This document shows positions 2,343 to 9,126 of a DNA stretch of 10,019 nucleotides, piece after piece. Position numbers and translations under genes: made by a program. Below the pieces are notes generated by a model. The model saw only the letters and a list, made by a program, of their open reading frames with translations. It made no database searches and had not been told where the DNA came from. The stretch lies in IMG/VR virus record IMGVR_UViG_2579778989_000006. One strand, written 5' to 3'. The stretch is from a virus. Its lineage: Duplodnaviria; Heunggongvirae; Uroviricota; Caudoviricetes. Position 1 is the first letter of the stretch. The number at the start of each line of letters is the position of its first letter.

Positions 2343-2780
2343 GTGAGCCTACCAGAGTTACGCTTACTGATCCATGAAAATACTGTAAAAATAAACAGTG
2401 TTGATTTAATCAACGCTGATTGCCTGCATTTTATTCAGTCCCTGCCTGATGATTCCATTGACCTGATTGTTACCGATCCGCCGTATTTCAAAGTGAAACC
2501 CGAGGGCTGGGACAATCAGTGGAAGGGCGACGATGATTACCTGAAGTGGCTGGACCAGTGTCTGGCTCAGTTCTGGCGGGAGCTGAAACCTGCTGGAAGT
2601 CTTTACCTGTTCTGTGGACATCGCCTGGCATCTGATATTGAAATCGTGATGCGTAAACGTTTTAATGTGCTGAACCATATCATATGGGCGAAGCCGTTCA
2701 GACCTTGGAGCGCATGCTGTTGTTGCTCACTGGTATTACGAACGGTTTGCTCACGGGGATGTACACATATTAATTGTTGA
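2343..2780 (+). pseudogene. N6-adenine DNA methyltransferase, 5' remnant (truncated)
   Basis: N-terminal part has the catalytic motif IV DPPY (IDLIVTDPPYF) and conserved flanks (SVDLINADCLHFIQSLPDDS, LKPAGSLYLFCG), but the ORF ends after 145 codons in a Cys-rich tail (SACCCCSLVLRTVCSRGCTHINC) with no FxGxG AdoMet-binding motif. Base composition switches to strongly AT-rich at ~2765. Functional methylases of this class are roughly twice this length. Confidence 0.7.
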
Positions 2781-2788
2781 TGTTAATA

Positions 2789-3130
2789 TTACGTCATGTT
2801 ATTAATACAAAATTGCAACGCATCATTCAAAGTATTATAATTATCATTTGTTGCATTTATTATGCCAACATTCCTTGTTGGTCTTCCTTCCGTTGAATAT
2901 TCTATCCAGAATGAGCCGGTGTATTTTGACATTCTATATGTTGCGAATTCTTTTGCATTAATTGGTGGTTTGGTGCCGTTGAGATCCAATATATAACCAC
3001 TTTCTTGAATTGTCTTAGAAAGGCAATTGATTATTTCATTTGTCGATATTTCACTGTCGATTTGAGGATGATTCACAATTAGCCCCATGCAGAGGATGCT
3101 TGAAATTATTATAAAAATATTTTTTATCAT
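2789..3130 (-). CDS. Hypothetical 113-aa protein with N-terminal signal peptide or membrane anchor, on an AT-rich island
   Basis: Minus-strand ORF in a markedly AT-rich segment. N-terminus MIKNIFIIISSILCMGLIVNHP is a hydrophobic signal or anchor sequence; mature part is Asn/Thr/Ile-rich with two Cys (possible disulfide). Opposite orientation to the surrounding phage late genes; no strong Shine-Dalgarno. Not recognised as any known family. Confidence 0.55.
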   Translation of the reverse strand: MIKNIFIIISSILCMGLIVNHPQIDSEISTNEIINCLSKTIQESGYILDLNGTKPPINAKEFATYRMSKYTGSFWIEYSTEGRPTRNVGIINATNDNYNTLNDALQFCINNMT

Positions 3131-3402
3131 GATGTCTGTTTTTGTGAACTTTTAGATAGAATGTCTGCTGTGGAGATATGTATACCTCTTGTGCTCATTT
3201 ATTTCAATAGATAGTTGAGCACTCATTGTGCTAATGGAAGAAGTTTTTTAATATGGAGTATCATCAAAATCACACAATAGTGATTAATATTGCTATTAGA
3301 TAAAGAAGTATCGCTAACTTTGATTTTGTTGAATTTGTTTTTAATAAAAGTTAGTGTGGTTTATATAGCAGGCATATGCATGCTGTTTTTAAAGAAACTT
3401 AT

Positions 3403-3477
3403 TGCCCCTTTAGCCCTAATGGTCAGAGCGAGAGGTTAATAACCGCCAGGTCGCCGGTTCAAACATGGCAGGGGCAC
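3403..3477 (+). tRNA. tRNA-like element, probably a degenerate tRNA pseudogene (tRNA-Ile2/LAU-like body)
   Basis: Perfect 7-bp acceptor stem (TGCCCCT 3403-3409 with AGGGGCA 3470-3476) and a TTCAAAC T-loop, but the D stem and anticodon stem have multiple mismatches, the anticodon loop is TTAATAA, and no CCA is encoded (CGAA follows). Overall resembles the E. coli tRNA-Ile(LAU) gene as I recall it. Confidence 0.35.
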
Positions 3478-3480
3478 GAA

Positions 3481-3557
3481 GCGCTGTTAGCTCAGTTGGA
3501 CAGAGCAATTGCCTTCTAAGCAATCGGTCACTGGTTCGAATCCAGTATGGCGCACCA
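3481..3557 (+). tRNA. tRNA-Arg (anticodon UCU)
   Basis: Manual cloverleaf: acceptor GCGCTGT/ATGGCGC (two G-U pairs), D arm GCTC-AGTTGGACA-GAGC, anticodon arm ATTGC-CTTCTAA-GCAAT (anticodon TCT), variable loop CGGTC, T arm ACTGG-TTCGAAT-CCAGT, discriminator A and encoded CCA. 77 nt. Confidence 0.85.
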
Positions 3558-3558
3558 T

Positions 3559-3633
<75 letters not shown>

Positions 3634-4110
3634 TAGAGGATTATGGGACAGTATAGTGAGCATTTTTCTGCGTTACTTTTCATCGGTAAAAATAAGCATA
3701 CAACAACTATTTATGCTGGCATTAGCTATGATAGTTATTGGTTTTCTCGGAATGTGTTTATTTGTTTACTATATTCTTATCGATAACTGATATTTTTGAT
3801 ATGAATACGGAGTGGTACAAACAAAAATATGAATTCGCTATGGAATCAGGATGTGTAATAAAAATAATAGTCACTAAGTTATAGTTTTTTTTAAAATGTT
3901 AAAAACATCACATTTCATTATGTTGGGCACTGGAGAATACCCAGTCGTTTTGTTAAAAATAATTACGCATGGTGAATCCCCCTAAGCGGAGGGGCAATCA
4001 GCAACTGGTGTTTTGTCACCGACCCTTATCCTTTCTGTGCGGGTTCAGGTGCTGATACTGAACTCACCGGGAGGCACCCGGCACCATGCAAAATTGTCTA
4101 CACTACCACT

Positions 4111-4140
4111 GTAAAAAGCCCCTCTCCGGAGGGGCTTTTC
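4111..4140. terminator. Bidirectional rho-independent terminator hairpin
   Basis: GCCCCTC (4118-4124), loop TCCG, GAGGGGC (4129-4135); A-tract upstream (4113-4117) and T-tract downstream (4136-4139). Confidence 0.6.
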
Positions 4141-4239
4141 TATGGGCAAAAAAAAGCCCGCAGTGAGTGGCGGGCGGGTCGCATGAATATACATCAGGTA
4201 TTTTTATTATCGTGTTCTGATTTTTACCATCTGTGATAA

Positions 4240-4265
4240 GGCTGCGCAACTGCGCGGCCTTTTTC
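4240..4265 (+). terminator. Rho-independent terminator ~95 bp upstream of the esterase gene
   Basis: GGCTGCGC (4240-4247), loop AACT, GCGCGGCC (4252-4259): 8-bp stem with one G-U pair, followed by TTTTT (4260-4264). Confidence 0.6.
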
Positions 4266-4358
4266 GTTTTGCGGGCTGCGGTTCTCCTCTTTTGATTCTC
4301 CGTGTAGCCGGACCGTGGCCCGCAACTGTTGAGGAAAATCCCGGAAAGGGGAGGAATA

Positions 4359-6293
4359 ATGGCATTTAAACACTATGACGTGGTCAGGGCGGCGTCGCCG
4401 TCAGACCTTGCGGAGCGACTGACACAAAAACTGAAGGAAGGCTGGCAGCCGTTTGGCAGTCCTGTGGCTATCACGCCTTATACACTGATGCAGGCCATTG
4501 CCGCAGAGGGTGATGTGACCACGCCTGTGGTTGTGCCCGACACAGGGGCTGGTGGCTCTCCGGGAGTGGCTACCACTGAACCGGAGTATTACTACGTTAT
4601 TCCCCTGGCCGGGCAGTCGAACGGTATGGCCTATGGTGAGGGGCTTCCTCTGCCGGAGACCTATGATCGCCCTGACTCCCGTATTAAGCAGCTGGCCCGT
4701 CGCAGCACTGTGACGCCGGGTGGTGATACCTGTGCATACAATGACGTTATTCCGGCAGACCACTGTCTGCATGATGTTCAGGACATGAGCGCACTTAACC
4801 ATCCTCATGCAGACCTGAGTAAGGGCCAGTACGGGACTGTCGGTCAGGGGCTGCATATTGCCAAAAAACTGCTGCCTTATATCCCGCAGAATGCCGGGAT
4901 TCTTCTGGTGCCCTGTTGCCGTGGCGGGTCTGGTTTAACCGTGGGTAATGACGGCACGTTCAGCGAAACGTCTGGCGCATCGGCAAATTCAGCCCGCTGG
5001 GGAGTGGGTAAACCGCTGTATCAGGATTTTCTCTTCCGTACAAAAGCGGCGCTGTCGAAGAACCCGAAAAACAGGCTTCTGGCCGTGGTATGGATGCAGG
5101 GGGAAAATGATCTTGCGGACGGCAGTCAGCAGCACAGCGGCCTGTTTACCACTATGGTGCAGCAGTTCAGGGCTGATATGGCTGCATATTCTGCACAGTG
5201 TGTTGGCGGAAGTGCTGGCTCGGTGCCGTGGATTTGTGGTGACACCACGTATTACTGGAAGAATCTTAACGCCGATAAATATGAGGCGGTATATGGCGGT
5301 TACAAGGGCAGGGAAGCACAGAATATTTTCTTTGTTCCTTTTATGACGGACAGCAGTGGTGCAAACACACCCACCAACAATCCGTCAGAAGACCCGGATA
5401 TTCCGGCATCAGGATATTACGGTGCAGCTTCCCGGACGTCGGCAAACTGGACGTCAGCAGACCGTGCGAGCCATTTCAGCTCATGGGCACGCAGGGGGAT
5501 TATCTCTGACCGTCTGGCCTCAGCGATTCTTCTCCATGCAGGACGAACGGCTGAACTGGTGGGGGGACAGGTTGTGACGCCGCCGGATGAGAAGCCGTCA
5601 CCGGACACACCACCAACACCGTCAACGGACGGGAAATCAGTGACAACGCTGCTTTCTTACCGTGCAGCAGAGTCAGATGGTTTACTGACTCCGCAGGGAT
5701 GGGGAGCTGAAGGAGGGAGTGCAGCGGTAGTTGATGATGCAGGTGCTGCGGGAGGTAAGGCGCTGAGGCTGACCAAACAGGCAGGAAGGTCTTCGTGGTT
5801 TATGCAGCATGATGCCGGTAATGGCGCAGACCTTCTGGAGAAAGGCGGGCTTATCAGCTGTCGTTTTAAAGTTGATGGTGTGCTGTCTGCTAACCGTTAT
5901 GCACTGGCGCTGTACTGGCCGGTTTCTTCATTGCCTCAGGGTGTCACACTGGAAGGTAATGCCGGTAACAATCTGCTGGCGTCGTTTTACGTACAGAGCG
6001 ATGCCACAGACCTCAACGTGATGTACCACAAGGGTAACGCTGACCAGAACACGAAGCTGGGGTCATTCGGCGCATTTGACAACGAATGGCATACGCTGGG
6101 CTTCCGTTTTGCCGGTAATAACAGCATTCAGGTGACGCCGGTGATTGATGGTCAGGATGGTGCACCGTTCATGCTGTCGCAGTCTCCGGTAGGTTCTTTT
6201 GCGGCAGACAAATTACGTGTAACGGATATCACAAAAGCGGCGACGTATACGGTGCTGATTGAAAGTATAACAGTGGAAGTGAATAACCCGTAA
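4359..6293 (+). CDS. nanS-p: Prophage-encoded sialate O-acetylesterase (NanS-p type): DUF1737-like N-terminus, SGNH/SASA esterase domain, C-terminal beta-rich domain
   Basis: Track ORF 4329-6293; preferred start ATG 4359 (GGGGAGGA Shine-Dalgarno 5-8 nt upstream). N-terminus MAFKHYDVVRAASPSDLAERL...GWQPFGSPV is the DUF1737-type module; YYVIPLAGQSNGMAYGEG holds the GQSN catalytic-serine block of SGNH esterases; a Pro/Thr-rich linker (PPDEKPSPDTPPTPSTDGK) precedes a C-terminal ~200-aa domain. Location downstream of the phage tRNA array matches nanS-p genes of EHEC Stx prophages. Confidence 0.85.
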   Translation: MAFKHYDVVRAASPSDLAERLTQKLKEGWQPFGSPVAITPYTLMQAIAAEGDVTTPVVVPDTGAGGSPGVATTEPEYYYVIPLAGQSNGMAYGEGLPLPETYDRPDSRIKQLARRSTVTPGGDTCAYNDVIPADHCLHDVQDMSALNHPHADLSKGQYGTVGQGLHIAKKLLPYIPQNAGILLVPCCRGGSGLTVGNDGTFSETSGASANSARWGVGKPLYQDFLFRTKAALSKNPKNRLLAVVWMQGENDLADGSQQHSGLFTTMVQQFRADMAAYSAQCVGGSAGSVPWICGDTTYYWKNLNADKYEAVYGGYKGREAQNIFFVPFMTDSSGANTPTNNPSEDPDIPASGYYGAASRTSANWTSADRASHFSSWARRGIISDRLASAILLHAGRTAELVGGQVVTPPDEKPSPDTPPTPSTDGKSVTTLLSYRAAESDGLLTPQGWGAEGGSAAVVDDAGAAGGKALRLTKQAGRSSWFMQHDAGNGADLLEKGGLISCRFKVDGVLSANRYALALYWPVSSLPQGVTLEGNAGNNLLASFYVQSDATDLNVMYHKGNADQNTKLGSFGAFDNEWHTLGFRFAGNNSIQVTPVIDGQDGAPFMLSQSPVGSFAADKLRVTDITKAATYTVLIESITVEVNNP

Positions 6294-6442
6294 GCAGGAA
6301 AAAAAAGACCGCCGTGGCAGGGAAAACAAGGAGCCAGAACCGGCGGCAGAAGTCGCTACATCCTTAGCAAAAATATGCTGAGCAAAAAATGCAGGAGTTT
6401 TTTACTGGCAGGCATTGACCATGTCAATAATGGAGATGAATA

Positions 6443-6625
6443 ATGACATTTTTACAGCTGATTATGTTGTATTTCTGTACAGCAGTTTGTGTGCTGTATC
6501 TTCTTTCTGGTGGGTACAGAGTCGTGAGAGATTTCTGGCGCAGACAGATTGACAAAAGGGCCGCTGAGAAAATCAGTGCCAGTCAGTCAGCCGGAACAAA
6601 ACCCGAAGAGCCTCTCATTCCGTAG
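6443..6625 (+). CDS. Hypothetical small membrane protein (60 aa)
   Basis: GGAG Shine-Dalgarno ~8 nt upstream of ATG 6443; N-terminal hydrophobic helix (LQLIMLYFCTAVCVLYLLSGG) followed by a basic then acidic tail. Confidence 0.5.
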   Translation: MTFLQLIMLYFCTAVCVLYLLSGGYRVVRDFWRRQIDKRAAEKISASQSAGTKPEEPLIP

Positions 6626-6661: not shown

Positions 6662-6932
6662 CATGTCAGAAATAAAATCGCTGGTCACTGCTGAAGCAGT
6701 GAAGGAAGTCCTGCGCTCTGAAGAAGTCAGAAGCGCACTGAAACAGCAACTTCGGCAGAACCTTGAGGCGCGTCTTGATGCAGAAGTGGATGCCATTCTG
6801 GATGAACTGCTGGGCGCACCGACTGTTCCGGAGCCGGAAGGCATTGCGGATGACAGTGCTGTTTCAGATGGCGTCGGGTCTCAGCCTGATGGTAGCAGTG
6901 AGCCTCAGCCTGACGGCGAAATGATGATGTAA
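6662..6932 (+). CDS. Hypothetical acidic protein (~90 aa)
   Basis: Track ORF 6549-6932 overlaps the preceding ORF; the first ATG clear of the overlap is 6662 (MSEIKSLVTAEAVKEVLRSEE...). Strongly acidic C-terminus (SEPQPDGEMMM). Weak Shine-Dalgarno; start uncertain. Confidence 0.4.
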
Positions 6933-7007: not shown

Positions 7008-7223
7008 ATGTACCAGATGGAAAAAATCACAACAGGTGTGTCATACACCACGTCAGCGGTGGGAACGGGCTACTGGTTCCTGCAGTTGCTGGACAGGGTT
7101 TCCCCGTCTCAGTGGGCGGCAATAGGCGTGCTGGGGAGTCTGCTGTTTGGGCTGCTGACATATCTGACTAACCTGTATTTCAAAATCAGAGAGGACCGGC
7201 GTAAGGCCGCCCGGGGAGAGTGA
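7008..7223 (+). CDS. S: Class II holin, S21-type pinholin, with dual-start motif
   Basis: 71-aa ORF; GGAGACGGGG Shine-Dalgarno. Two in-frame starts (Met1 and Met4: [10 protein letters not shown]) as in holin/antiholin pairs. Sequence ...[51 protein letters not shown] closely matches phage 21 S21 as I recall it (two TM segments, charged C-terminus). Confidence 0.85.
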
Positions 7224-7226
7224 ATA

Positions 7227-7784
7227 ATGAACCATGAAGAAATGAATCAGCGCTTCAGTCGCCTGGAAAATGAAATTGCTGAACTGAATAAAAAACTGTC
7301 GACGCTGATGCCTTCTGAAGATGAAAAAAAACGCCGCGATGAGCAGTTTGCTGCGTTTGACGATTATTGTCGGAAAGTGATGAGCAGAAATCTCGCAGAG
7401 TGTTTCAGTATTCATAATGATAATTTCAGTGACCTGGAATGGGAGTGTAACCGGCCATCCTTTGTTGTATCCGGTGATGCCGGGAAAATAACCATCACAG
7501 AAAATGGGAAACTAACACCTCCATCGCACCAGCACAGTGAGGAGCTCATTGAATTTGCCATTGATTACCTGAAGAACAATAAAAAGCAGGGGCTGATGAA
7601 GCGCGTTGGCCGTTGCATGGGATATCTGCAGATAGCTGCTGAGATTGAAGCGCTGGCCAGTGGTGCGGACAAGGATGCAGTTGTGCGGGAGGCTCTTCTT
7701 CGTGATTTTGATAATCCGCCCTTTAAAAAAGTGCCGGCTTACTGGTTTCATCCAGGACTGACTTATCTTAAAGGACGTATATAA
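7227..7784 (+). CDS. Hypothetical 185-aa soluble protein located between holin and endolysin
   Basis: ATG 7227 lies 3 nt after the holin stop (TGA 7221-7223) with GGGGAGAG Shine-Dalgarno inside the holin 3' end, implying translational coupling. N-terminal predicted coiled coil (NQRFSRLENEIAELNKKLSTL), no hydrophobic segment, four Cys. No family recognised. Confidence 0.6.
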   Translation: MNHEEMNQRFSRLENEIAELNKKLSTLMPSEDEKKRRDEQFAAFDDYCRKVMSRNLAECFSIHNDNFSDLEWECNRPSFVVSGDAGKITITENGKLTPPSHQHSEELIEFAIDYLKNNKKQGLMKRVGRCMGYLQIAAEIEALASGADKDAVVREALLRDFDNPPFKKVPAYWFHPGLTYLKGRI

Positions 7785-7826: not shown

Positions 7827-8360
7827 ATGAACACCAAAATCAAATACGGCCTGTCGGCTGCCGTTCTGGCGCTGATTGCCGCTGGTGCGCCTGCGCCTGA
7901 CATTCTCGACCAGTTTCTGGATGAAAAGGAAGGCAATCACACCACGGCATACCGTGATGGTGCAGGTATCTGGACCATCTGCCGTGGTGCCATCATGGTG
8001 GATGGCAAACCTGTCGTTCCGGGCATGAAGTTGTCGAAGGAAAAATGCGACCAGGTTAACGCCATTGAGCGTGATAAAGCGCTGGCGTGGGTGGAGAAAA
8101 ACATCAGAGTGCCACTGACCGAACCCCAGAAAGCGGGGATCGCGTCATTCTGTCCGTACAACATTGGTCCCGGTAAGTGTTTCCCGTCGACGTTTTATAA
8201 ACGAATTAATGCAGGCGATCGCAGGGGGGCGTGTGAGGCGATTCGCTGGTGGATTAAGGACGGTGGCAGAGACTGCCGTATTCGCTCAAACAACTGTTAC
8301 GGTCAGGTATCCCGTCGCGACCAGGAGAGTGCGCTGGCGTGCTGGGGAATTGACAGATAA
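7827..8360 (+). CDS. R: SAR endolysin (T4-lysozyme-like muramidase, GH24) with signal-anchor-release N-terminus
   Basis: 177-aa ORF. N-terminal Gly/Ala-rich weakly hydrophobic segment (LSAAVLALIAAGAPAP) typical of SAR domains, followed by the lysozyme catalytic triad spacing E-x8-D-x5-T (EGNHTTAYRDGAGIWT). Pairs with the pinholin upstream. Confidence 0.85.
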   Translation: MNTKIKYGLSAAVLALIAAGAPAPDILDQFLDEKEGNHTTAYRDGAGIWTICRGAIMVDGKPVVPGMKLSKEKCDQVNAIERDKALAWVEKNIRVPLTEPQKAGIASFCPYNIGPGKCFPSTFYKRINAGDRRGACEAIRWWIKDGGRDCRIRSNNCYGQVSRRDQESALACWGIDR

Positions 8361-8450: not shown

Positions 8451-8484
8451 AAAACCCCGTTTGTTGGCTGCAAGCGGGGTTTTG
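8451..8484 (+). terminator. Rho-independent terminator-like hairpin between endolysin and spanin genes
   Basis: CCCCGTTTG (8455-8463), 7-nt loop, CAAGCGGGG (8471-8479): 9-bp stem with one G-U pair, followed by TTTTGTGTTT; A-rich tract upstream. Confidence 0.55.
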
Positions 8485-8658: not shown

Positions 8659-9126
8659 ATGAACCGCGTACTGTGCGTGGTCATCATTGCCCTGCTGGTG
8701 GCCTGTGGTGCGCTTAGTCTGGGGCTGAATCATTACCGTGATAACGCCATAACCTACAAAGAGCAGCGCGATAAAAAAGTCAGTGAGCTGGAGCTGGCAA
8801 ATGCAACCATTACTGATATGCAGCAGCGCCAGCGTGATGTTGCTGCACTTGATGCCAGATACTCGAGGGAATTAGCCGATGCGAGAGCTGAAAATGAAAC
8901 TCTTCGCGCTGACGTTGCCGCTGGTCACCGCAGCCTGCGGATCAACGCCACCTGTCCAGGTCCCGTGCGTGAAGCCACCGGCACCGCCCGCGTGGATAAT
9001 GCAACCGGCCCCCAACTGGCAGACACCGTTACACGGGATTATTTCACCCTCAGAGAGCGGCTGATGACGATGCAGAAGCAACTGGAAGGGGCACAGGACT
9101 ATATCCGCACTCAGTGCCTGAAATAA
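8659..9126 (+). CDS. Rz: Rz i-spanin (inner-membrane spanin subunit)
   Basis: 155-aa ORF with N-terminal TM anchor (VLCVVIIALLVACGALSLGL), coiled-coil middle, and an embedded +1-frame lipoprotein gene, the defining Rz/Rz1 architecture. Confidence 0.85.
   Translation: MNRVLCVVIIALLVACGALSLGLNHYRDNAITYKEQRDKKVSELELANATITDMQQRQRDVAALDARYSRELADARAENETLRADVAAGHRSLRINATCPGPVREATGTARVDNATGPQLADTVTRDYFTLRERLMTMQKQLEGAQDYIRTQCLK
8879..9064 (+). CDS. Rz1: Rz1 o-spanin (outer-membrane lipoprotein), embedded in Rz in the +1 frame
   Basis: ORF wholly inside Rz in another frame; signal peptide with lipobox-like LVTAAC followed by a Pro-rich mature region (CVKPPAPPAWIMQPAPNWQTPLHGIISPSESG) nearly matching lambda Rz1 as I recall it. 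Start may be ATG 8879 (GAGGGA Shine-Dalgarno) or ATG 8894. Confidence 0.8.
   Translation: MRELKMKLFALTLPLVTAACGSTPPVQVPCVKPPAPPAWIMQPAPNWQTPLHGIISPSESG

Follow-up and report, generated by a model that had tools for sequence, protein, structure and literature searches.

We analyzed a 10,019-nucleotide (nt) stretch of DNA from a tailed phage (Caudoviricetes; IMG/VR record IMGVR_UViG_2579778989_000006), hereafter the window, around an open reading frame (ORF) of the nanS-p type, a family of esterase genes carried by prophages. The ORF is intact and lies on the plus strand at 4359-6293, running from an ATG at 4359 to a TAA at 6291-6293 (644 codons); its product has 644 amino acids (aa), a mass of 68.3 kDa, and an isoelectric point of 5.4. 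A Shine-Dalgarno sequence, AAGGGGAGGA, occupies 4346-4355 and ends 4 nt 5' of the ATG. Because homologues begin at the same initial Met (MAFKHYD or MTFKHYD), we place the start at ATG 4359 and not at TTG 4329. The protein is 100% identical to RefSeq WP_032179375.1, a "SASA family carbohydrate esterase" of Escherichia coli JKHS016, and it matches phrog_143 of the PHROGs database over its full length. NCBIfam assigned no family to it, and PADLOC likewise returned none; thus, it is not a recognized defense component. Neither a signal peptide nor a transmembrane segment was detected in the protein [Kyte-Doolittle(19) maximum, 0.95]; NanS-p must therefore leave the cell by lysis or on a particle.

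The protein is built from three modules, with folds assigned from direct matches to two solved structures (PDB 3pt5 and 6yp6). An N-terminal DUF1737 domain (4365-4508, aa 3-50; Pfam PF08410, E = 1e-15) precedes an esterase core of the NanS-type SGNH (type II)/SASA class (4569-5531, aa 71-391), which matches E. coli NanS (3pt5; phmmer, E = 9.6e-117) and contains the Pfam SASA domain (PF03629; aa 149-278, E = 6.9e-12). A lectin-like jelly-roll forms the C terminus (5640-6287, aa 428-643); it matches the C-terminal domain of a NanS-p protein (6yp6, E = 1.1e-98) and includes DUF6645 (PF20350; aa 493-610, E = 1.3e-68). Pro/Thr-rich linkers lie between NanS-p domains, and the one that joins core and jelly-roll here, VVTPPDEKPSPDTPPTPSTDGKSV (5571-5642, aa 405-428), has 7 Pro and 4 Thr. 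This linker is 26 to 35% identical to its phi24B counterpart, versus 70 to 74% in the flanking domains.

The blocks that distinguish NanS-type enzymes within the SGNH group are in place. Block I, GQSN (4611-4622, aa 85-88), holds the predicted oxyanion-hole Gln86 and nucleophile Ser87; a QGEND block follows at aa 247-251; and RASH (5463-5474, aa 369-372), which replaces DxxH, ends in the putative catalytic His372. In the alignment with 3pt5, read after removal of the 11-residue offset of the crystallized chain, Ser87, His372, and Gln86 fall in line with NanS Ser19, His301, and Gln18. In E. coli NanS, catalysis proceeds through Ser19 and His301, the Asp that would complete a classical SGNH triad is missing, and the oxyanion hole includes Gln18 (PMC9063846); RSSH or RASH constitutes block IV of the NanS-p family in place of DxxH (Pascal et al., PMC10462455). 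Carbohydrate binding by the C-terminal jelly-roll is a proposal made for the NanS-p family (PMC8065619). The sugar site proposed for phi24B comprises four aromatics, Y510, Y515, Y540, and F611, all of which are kept here, as Y514, Y519, Y544, and F614, and by these residues and homology to 6yp6 we regard the domain as a putative carbohydrate-binding module.

A preliminary description of the window, drawn from its letters alone, had proposed just such an esterase, and each element that it named was found where it had been placed: the DUF1737 and SASA domains, both detected by Pfam, with the SGNH fold recovered through 3pt5; the GQSN serine block; a Pro/Thr-rich linker around 5581-5637, which falls inside the linker given above; and a beta-rich C-terminal domain, the jelly-roll. 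The proposed identity is borne out by the Pfam and PDB matches and by a full-length alignment with phi24B vb_24B_21. One point needs rewording. The description would have judged the enzyme by a conserved Ser/Asp/His set, of which Ser87 and His372 (plus Gln86) are present and the Asp is no part of NanS-type enzymes; because the NanS family itself lacks a catalytic Asp, the triad is the wrong test. By homology, the ORF is a nanS-p gene of lambdoid E. coli phages and encodes a prophage esterase built from three modules. The gene itself is ordinary: the family is already characterized, and the exact protein is already annotated in RefSeq.

What goes beyond the first description lies upstream of the gene, where a terminator hairpin proves to be a conserved element of the nanS-p cassette and is followed by a conserved helix in the 5' untranslated region (5'-UTR). 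The predicted intrinsic terminator spans 4238-4271 on the plus strand (stem, 4238-4261). Its arms, AAGGCTGCGC-AACT-GCGCGGCCTT, form a 10-bp stem with 7 G-C pairs around the AACT loop, then comes TTTTTCGTTTT, and a U-tract, UUUUUCGUUUU, stands directly 3' of the stem on the transcribed strand. The stem ends 97 nt 5' of the nanS-p ATG, in agreement with the terminator previously noted about 95 bp upstream. It ranks first in a consensus scan of the whole window, in which 19 terminator-like sites were scored versus 10.0 ± 2.9 in shuffled sequences, and its predicted folding free energy (dG) is -20.7 kcal/mol (z = -3.4), a stability reached by 1 of 200 shuffles.

For comparison with the window, we took 13 further nanS-p or DUF1737 loci, some from phages and some from E. 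coli genomes, and examined the sequence 5' of each start. A terminator-like hairpin precedes the start in 12 of these 14 loci, with the core CTGCGC-loop-GCGCGGCC followed by a T-tract; three of the 12 carry G-U or single-mismatch variants. The distance from hairpin to start is 84 to 109 nt where the scan scored the hairpin, and elsewhere the hairpin occupies the same alignment position. At two loci, 2B8 and O157 Rafaela_II, it is retained between flanks that are both unrelated. A pattern scan of IMG/VR gave the same picture on a larger scale: the hairpin was found in at least 120 stretches, and among the matches listed, 112 had enough downstream sequence to be used. An ORF beginning with M..KHYD, the start of DUF1737, opens 85 to 108 nt 3' of the hairpin in 106 of these 112. 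Among the same listed matches, one of the six exceptions has the variant MAFKYYD, and the other five share unrelated sequence from ~28 nt past the hairpin. The hairpin is therefore no chance feature: it belongs to the nanS-p cassette and accompanies at least four N-terminal variants. No compensatory pairs were found in the stem; its variation consists of loop changes and one-sided replacements of G-C by G-U. We found no description of a hairpin upstream of nanS-p in the searchable literature.

One hairpin variant may go with one kind of N terminus. A stem with a G-to-A mismatch occurs in 14 of the 112 listed IMG/VR matches, and the exact phi24B-type DUF1737 N terminus also occurs in 14, equal counts that suggest co-occurrence of this N terminus with its own hairpin variant. 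Leader and N-terminal domain may be inherited as one block.

Between the terminator T-tract and the ribosome-binding site, RNAalifold predicts a second structure on the plus strand, a conserved 5'-UTR helix at 4271-4323 (4271-4284 paired with 4310-4323). Over 10 diverged loci, 92.5% of alignment cells in this helix are paired, and three pairs are changed on both sides; the covariation score was reached by 14 of 500 shuffles.

The surroundings of nanS-p are those of a lambdoid late region. All of the window from base 247 onward is 100% identical to part of the chromosome of E. coli JKHS016, isolated from hospital wastewater in Japan. RefSeq assigns this part to a lambdoid prophage, as its late-regulatory and lysis region; our domain searches concur. 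The genes that follow are on the plus strand unless stated otherwise. A DUF968 gene lies 5' of the RusA gene (766-1125; both from RefSeq and domain searches), which is followed by the gene for the late antiterminator Q (1116-1805; Pfam PF06323, E = 2e-87, with the RefSeq annotation in agreement). A pR'-like promoter found by consensus scan, TTGCAA-17-TATATT (1795-1823), overlaps the Q stop codon, and ~50 nt 3' of its -10 hexamer stands a very stable, bidirectional-looking hairpin that resembles tR' (1873-1900; stem 1873-1898 plus a T-run; dG -19.5, z = -5.6). We make the pR' and tR' assignments by position and by analogy with lambda and 933W, so both names are putative. The pair would give a leader RNA of ~70 nt, analogous to lambda 6S, and Shiga toxin (Stx) phages presumably make a similar pR'-tR' small RNA (sRNA), StxS. 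On the opposite strand, a subthreshold match to the Rfam family STnc370 coincides with the tR'-like hairpin.

Between this hairpin and nanS-p lie a truncated type II DNA methylase gene (2343-2780; RefSeq and domain searches), two tRNA genes, tRNA-Arg(UCU) and tRNA-Gly(UCC) (3481-3633; tRNA search), and an STnc100-family sRNA gene (3937-4147). The methylase gene breaks off at ~2780, and 3' of it lies an AT-rich island (GC content, 0.30 to 0.38) that bears, on the minus strand at 2789-3130, a 113-aa ORF with a hydrophobic N terminus and no match in Pfam, PHROGs, or PADLOC; the region (2343-3460) resembles an inserted moron. Other sampled nanS-p loci carry tRNA-Ile plus tRNA-Arg or tRNA-Ile plus two tRNA-Arg genes, and the phi24B record lists Ile, Arg, and Ser; the Arg plus Gly pair is also found in mouse strain A8. 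The 300 nt between the tRNA genes and STnc100, the position of stx, are AT-rich and empty, and no stx operon is present in the window. The match to STnc100 (RF02076) is full length, scores 140.8 bits versus a gathering score of 47 (E = 8e-32), and ends in a terminator of its own (4114-4140; stem 4114-4139; dG -20.1, z = -3.9). At this locus RefSeq annotates only a minus-strand pseudogene. Recent papers place STnc100 between stx and the esterase gene in Stx phages, and place STnc100 and the related PasD just 5' of the prophage esterase gene (PMC12370729; bioRxiv 10.64898/2026.05.13.724894). In an E-value search of Rfam, neither AsxR, AgvB, nor any other family was found at the nanS-p hairpin or between nanS-p and the holin gene; the whole Rfam yield of the window is STnc100, the two tRNAs, and the subthreshold STnc370 match.

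Downstream of nanS-p, genes for DUF1378 (6443-6625) and DUF826 (6663-6932; both from RefSeq and domain searches) lead into the lysis genes, which were identified by Pfam, PHROGs, and RefSeq: a P21-type holin (7008-7223), an endolysin (7827-8360), and Rz (8659-9126) with an embedded Rz1 (8879-9064). A 185-aa ORF (7227-7784) lies between holin and endolysin, a place taken in other phages by a gene of the YdfR family; its match to phrog_1085, a family of unknown function, is confined to the C-terminal two-thirds of the latter. A 14-bp terminator-like hairpin on the plus strand at 8451-8483, second in rank in the window, separates the endolysin gene from a small ORF and Rz. On the same strand, a promoter-like sequence, TTGACC-18-AATAAT (6415-6444; 10 of 12 consensus matches), ends at the DUF1378 start codon, in an interval where the literature places the sRNAs PasA and PasC.

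nanS-p thus sits between Q and the holin gene on the same strand, the position of a lambdoid late gene. Three plus-strand terminators separate pR' from its ATG, namely, the tR'-like hairpin, the 3' end of STnc100, and the nanS-p hairpin. A consensus scan found no sigma-70-like promoter between the last of these and the ATG, and between the nanS-p stop codon and the holin gene there are only weak terminator-like matches; we therefore infer that nanS-p is cotranscribed with the lysis genes. In Stx2a phages, mitomycin C raises nanS-p expression by 1 to 2.4 log, in parallel with stx2a (PMC10462455), and nanS-p is also upregulated by norfloxacin (PMC8065619). A published scheme of Q, pR', and tR' with the layout of lambda and 933W draws nanS-p1 inside the Q-dependent unit (PMC12078605). 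By analogy with these Stx-phage alleles, on which the experimental demonstration was made, Q-dependent expression of nanS-p in the window is expected. The preliminary description had tied this dependence to the terminator just upstream of the gene. The context (Q, pR', tR', and the terminators) fits gating by Q antitermination; the gating, in turn, belongs to the entire late operon, beginning at pR'. The local hairpin is better read as an insulator against transcription from the tRNA and sRNA genes, one that Q-modified polymerase overrides.

These observations suggest the following sequence of events. In a lysogen, transcripts from pR' would end at tR', those of the tRNA and STnc100 genes would end at the tandem terminators 4114-4140 and 4238-4271, and nanS-p and the lethal lysis genes would stay silent as a consequence. 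Upon induction, Q-modified RNA polymerase would pass all three terminators and transcribe nanS-p together with S-R-Rz. Cytoplasmic NanS-p would then be freed by lysis and, given a compatible capsid, might also be exported on virions via DUF1737. Outside the cell, guided by its putative C-terminal carbohydrate-binding module, it would remove 9-O-acetyl groups from free and mucin-bound sialic acids, and the resulting Neu5Ac could be used by surviving kin. NanS-p alleles of EDL933 and O104:H4 are reported to act as esterases on Neu5,9Ac2 and on mucin O-glycans and to enable growth on Neu5,9Ac2 (PMC8065619). By homology with characterized alleles, the NanS-p of the window probably deacetylates gut sialic acids as well, and the function in the gut that had been suggested for it agrees with the literature on such alleles (PMC8065619, PMC10462455). 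To call it a metabolic accessory enzyme, as the earlier text did, captures the enzymatic role and is incomplete, since the phi24B orthologue, gp84, is a capsid-decoration protein.

Taken as a whole, we are confident that the locus is best explained as an intact prophage sialate O-acetylesterase allele in a Q-dependent late operon, behind a terminator that belongs to the nanS-p cassette. Several observations weigh against parts of this explanation. The promoter scan used the sigma-70 consensus only, and the 97-nt leader may still hold a promoter that is weak or depends on an activator; basal nanS-p expression has been recorded in uninduced cultures (PMC10462455). Without compensatory pairs, structure-level selection on the hairpin is unproven, and conservation at the sequence level fits equally well; in the phi24B lineage the stem has a C·A mismatch (dG -14.3, z = -2.0). 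Activity, specificity, and regulation are extrapolated to this allele from relatives that are 69 to 83% identical. Finally, JKHS016, the one genome with an identical locus, has lost the head and tail genes of the prophage.

The strongest competing explanation starts from phi24B, in which gp84 gives one of the most intense virion protein bands, from which the authors infer a high copy number. The DUF1737 domain of gp84 (residues 2-57) assembles into hexamers that plug the central hexons of a T=9 capsid, with Tyr42 as an anchor, and a full-length band of ~70 kDa in fresh virions is processed at both linkers on storage (bioRxiv 10.64898/2026.04.10.717836). NanS-p could accordingly be primarily a virion structural protein whose DUF1737 hexamers plug hexons and display esterase and lectin for mucus adherence or penetration, with feeding of the lysogen as a by-product. 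The cryo-electron microscopy and proteomics of that preprint, on a protein 69% identical to ours, speak for this role, and a place in the late operon and the missing signal peptide are both in keeping with a structural protein. DUF1737 aa 1-34 of the window are nearly identical to those of gp84, and a Tyr, Y41, stands in the equivalent loop. However, this anchor loop, with its Tyr "tooth," differs: it reads ITPYTLM in the window versus STAGYGAEF in phi24B and is 3 residues shorter. The window-type DUF1737 also travels with head modules that share no sequence relationship with the phi24B capsid, capsid genes are gone from the JKHS016 prophage, and the evidence comes from one preprint on one phage. 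We consider a primarily structural role possible but lean against it.

The head modules in question are of three kinds. phi24B has a PF13252 capsid; BP-4795 and Stx2a_1447, long-tailed phages that carry the window-type DUF1737 variant, have a fusion of S78 protease and PF05065, with capsids unrelated to that of phi24B; and JKHS016 retains lambda-type terminase (gpA) and portal genes, with no capsid genes of its own. We considered whether one DUF1737 type could serve both capsids through a likeness between them. We rejected this idea: the major capsid proteins of phi24B and BP-4795 have no similarity by BLASTP and belong to different Pfam families. In this small sample, the PF13252 capsid is paired with the phi24B-type loop and the BP-4795/Stx2a_1447 head with the window-type loop. 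The short ITPYTLM-loop variant is the commonest DUF1737 variant and occurs in long-tailed lambdoid phages whose heads are of the HK97/S78-fusion or the lambda type. A tentative idea, which we hold to be doubtful, is that DUF1737 of the window is a capsid anchor tuned to a capsid class other than that of phi24B. If it were true, lambdoid siphoviruses of E. coli would as a rule have virions decorated with esterase, and DUF1737 loop variants would coevolve with head modules despite the recombination-prone location between Q and S.

A second competing explanation concerns the hairpin rather than the protein: instead of standing as a gate before nanS-p, it could be the 3' end of an unannotated sRNA or a leftover of an sRNA or moron cassette. 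Prophage sRNAs are known around the esterase gene (PasD/STnc100 upstream and PasA/PasC downstream), and the STnc100 gene ends only ~100 nt 5' of the hairpin. The interval 4147-4238, however, has no promoter-like site by consensus scan and no Rfam family at E ≤ 0.1, and the hairpin keeps its distance to the nanS-p start and not to an sRNA, persisting even where both flanks have been replaced (2B8 and O157). We therefore find this origin improbable. The two accounts are also compatible, as a terminator of any upstream transcript would still need to be overridden by Q-modified polymerase.

It is less probable still that nanS-p is a silent relic in a defective prophage, contributing nothing. The damage around it is real: in JKHS016 the identical locus lies in a prophage with a truncated portal gene joined to a remnant of a tail-tip gene, an IS3-family element cuts the neighboring DUF968 gene in the source strain of the window, and the DNA methylase gene is truncated. 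Yet the reading frame of 644 codons is unbroken and encodes every catalytic and binding residue; Q, holin, endolysin, and Rz/Rz1 are intact too; and the multiple nanS-p copies in cryptic EDL933 prophages are all reported to be functional (PMC8065619). The least credible proposal, raised as a hypothesis in a review (PMC8065619), is that NanS-p serves infection by de-O-acetylating O-antigen or capsule to expose a receptor or by preventing readsorption of progeny to debris; virion display would put the enzyme at the cell surface and a module of the carbohydrate-binding type is present, but all measured NanS-p substrates are sialic acids and mucin O-glycans (PMC8065619), the core is a close homologue of the sialate esterase NanS encoded by the chromosome, and no experiment ties NanS-p to adsorption.

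The insertion in DUF968 is visible in the window itself: positions 1-246, which have no match in JKHS016, match the end of an IS3-family element found at thousands of places in E. coli genomes. In JKHS016, the prophage carries, 5' of DUF968, an IS5 transposase gene, QueH, and a pair of cytosine methyltransferase and NgoMIV-type restriction genes. The gene family is widespread: in a megablast search of 5,426 complete E. coli genomes, 1,131 have nanS-p-like DNA, with a median of six places per positive genome, and the window allele was found at ≥99% identity in 9 records. A NanS-p relative is encoded in 351 records of the phage collection, mostly Stx-converting phages.

The cassette hairpin offers a handle on how transcription of tRNA and sRNA "morons" in a lysogen is kept out of nanS-p and the lysis genes. 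The protein raises a different question, namely, how a capsid-anchoring domain travels with unrelated head modules; the presence of the same DUF1737 variant beside such modules makes the newly proposed role in capsid decoration testable.

Comparison with known systems places the allele among its relatives. The most reduced of them is in vB_EcoS-640R1, where a 67-aa DUF1737-only protein (L008, 1486-1689) is encoded just 5' of the holin gene; it is 94% identical to aa 1-53 of the window protein but lacks the esterase, the lectin domain, and the hairpin upstream. Chromosomal NanS (YjhS, 3pt5) belongs to the nanCMS sialic acid operon under NanR control. Its core aligns over 321 residues, the equivalents of Ser19, His301, and Gln18 are kept, and a catalytic Asp is absent; judging from the 337-residue 3pt5 chain and from how far the match extends, NanS consists of the core domain only, to which the window protein adds DUF1737 and the lectin-like domain.

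The closest parallels in layout are phi24B vb_24B_21 (gp84) and 933W Z1466/L0105. Both have the same domain order (DUF1737, SASA, and DUF6645), the same SGNH variants (GQSN, QGE.D, and RASH), and the same four C-terminal aromatics, and their genes occupy the same locus, between Q/tRNAs/STnc100 and DUF1378-DUF826-holin, behind the same upstream hairpin. Identity to vb_24B_21 is 69% overall, with 66% in DUF1737, 74% in the esterase core, 70% in the C-terminal domain, and 22 to 35% in the two linkers. Unlike the Stx phages, the window has no stx operon upstream. It also differs from phi24B in its hairpin, perfect in the window and mismatched in phi24B, and in its linkers, which lack SSP; the phi24B preprint suggests that this motif is a site of autoproteolysis, and it is absent from the whole window protein. 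The heads differ as well, with a lambda type accompanying the window allele in JKHS016 and the T=9 podovirus type in phi24B.

The closest sampled allele, WP_000023170.1 of O157:H7 (Rafaela_II), is 83% identical overall and has the same DUF1378-DUF826-holin neighbors. Its 5' flank is unrelated to that of the window apart from the hairpin, whose loop in this allele is 3 nt long and is followed, after the stem, by a T8 tract. The second linker (94%) and the C-terminal domain (90%) are close to ours, whereas the esterase core is only 77% identical, within the 73 to 77% that separates the core of the window protein from all other sampled nanS-p cores. Thus, we conclude that the window allele is a mosaic, and mosaicism is typical of nanS-p (PMC10462455).

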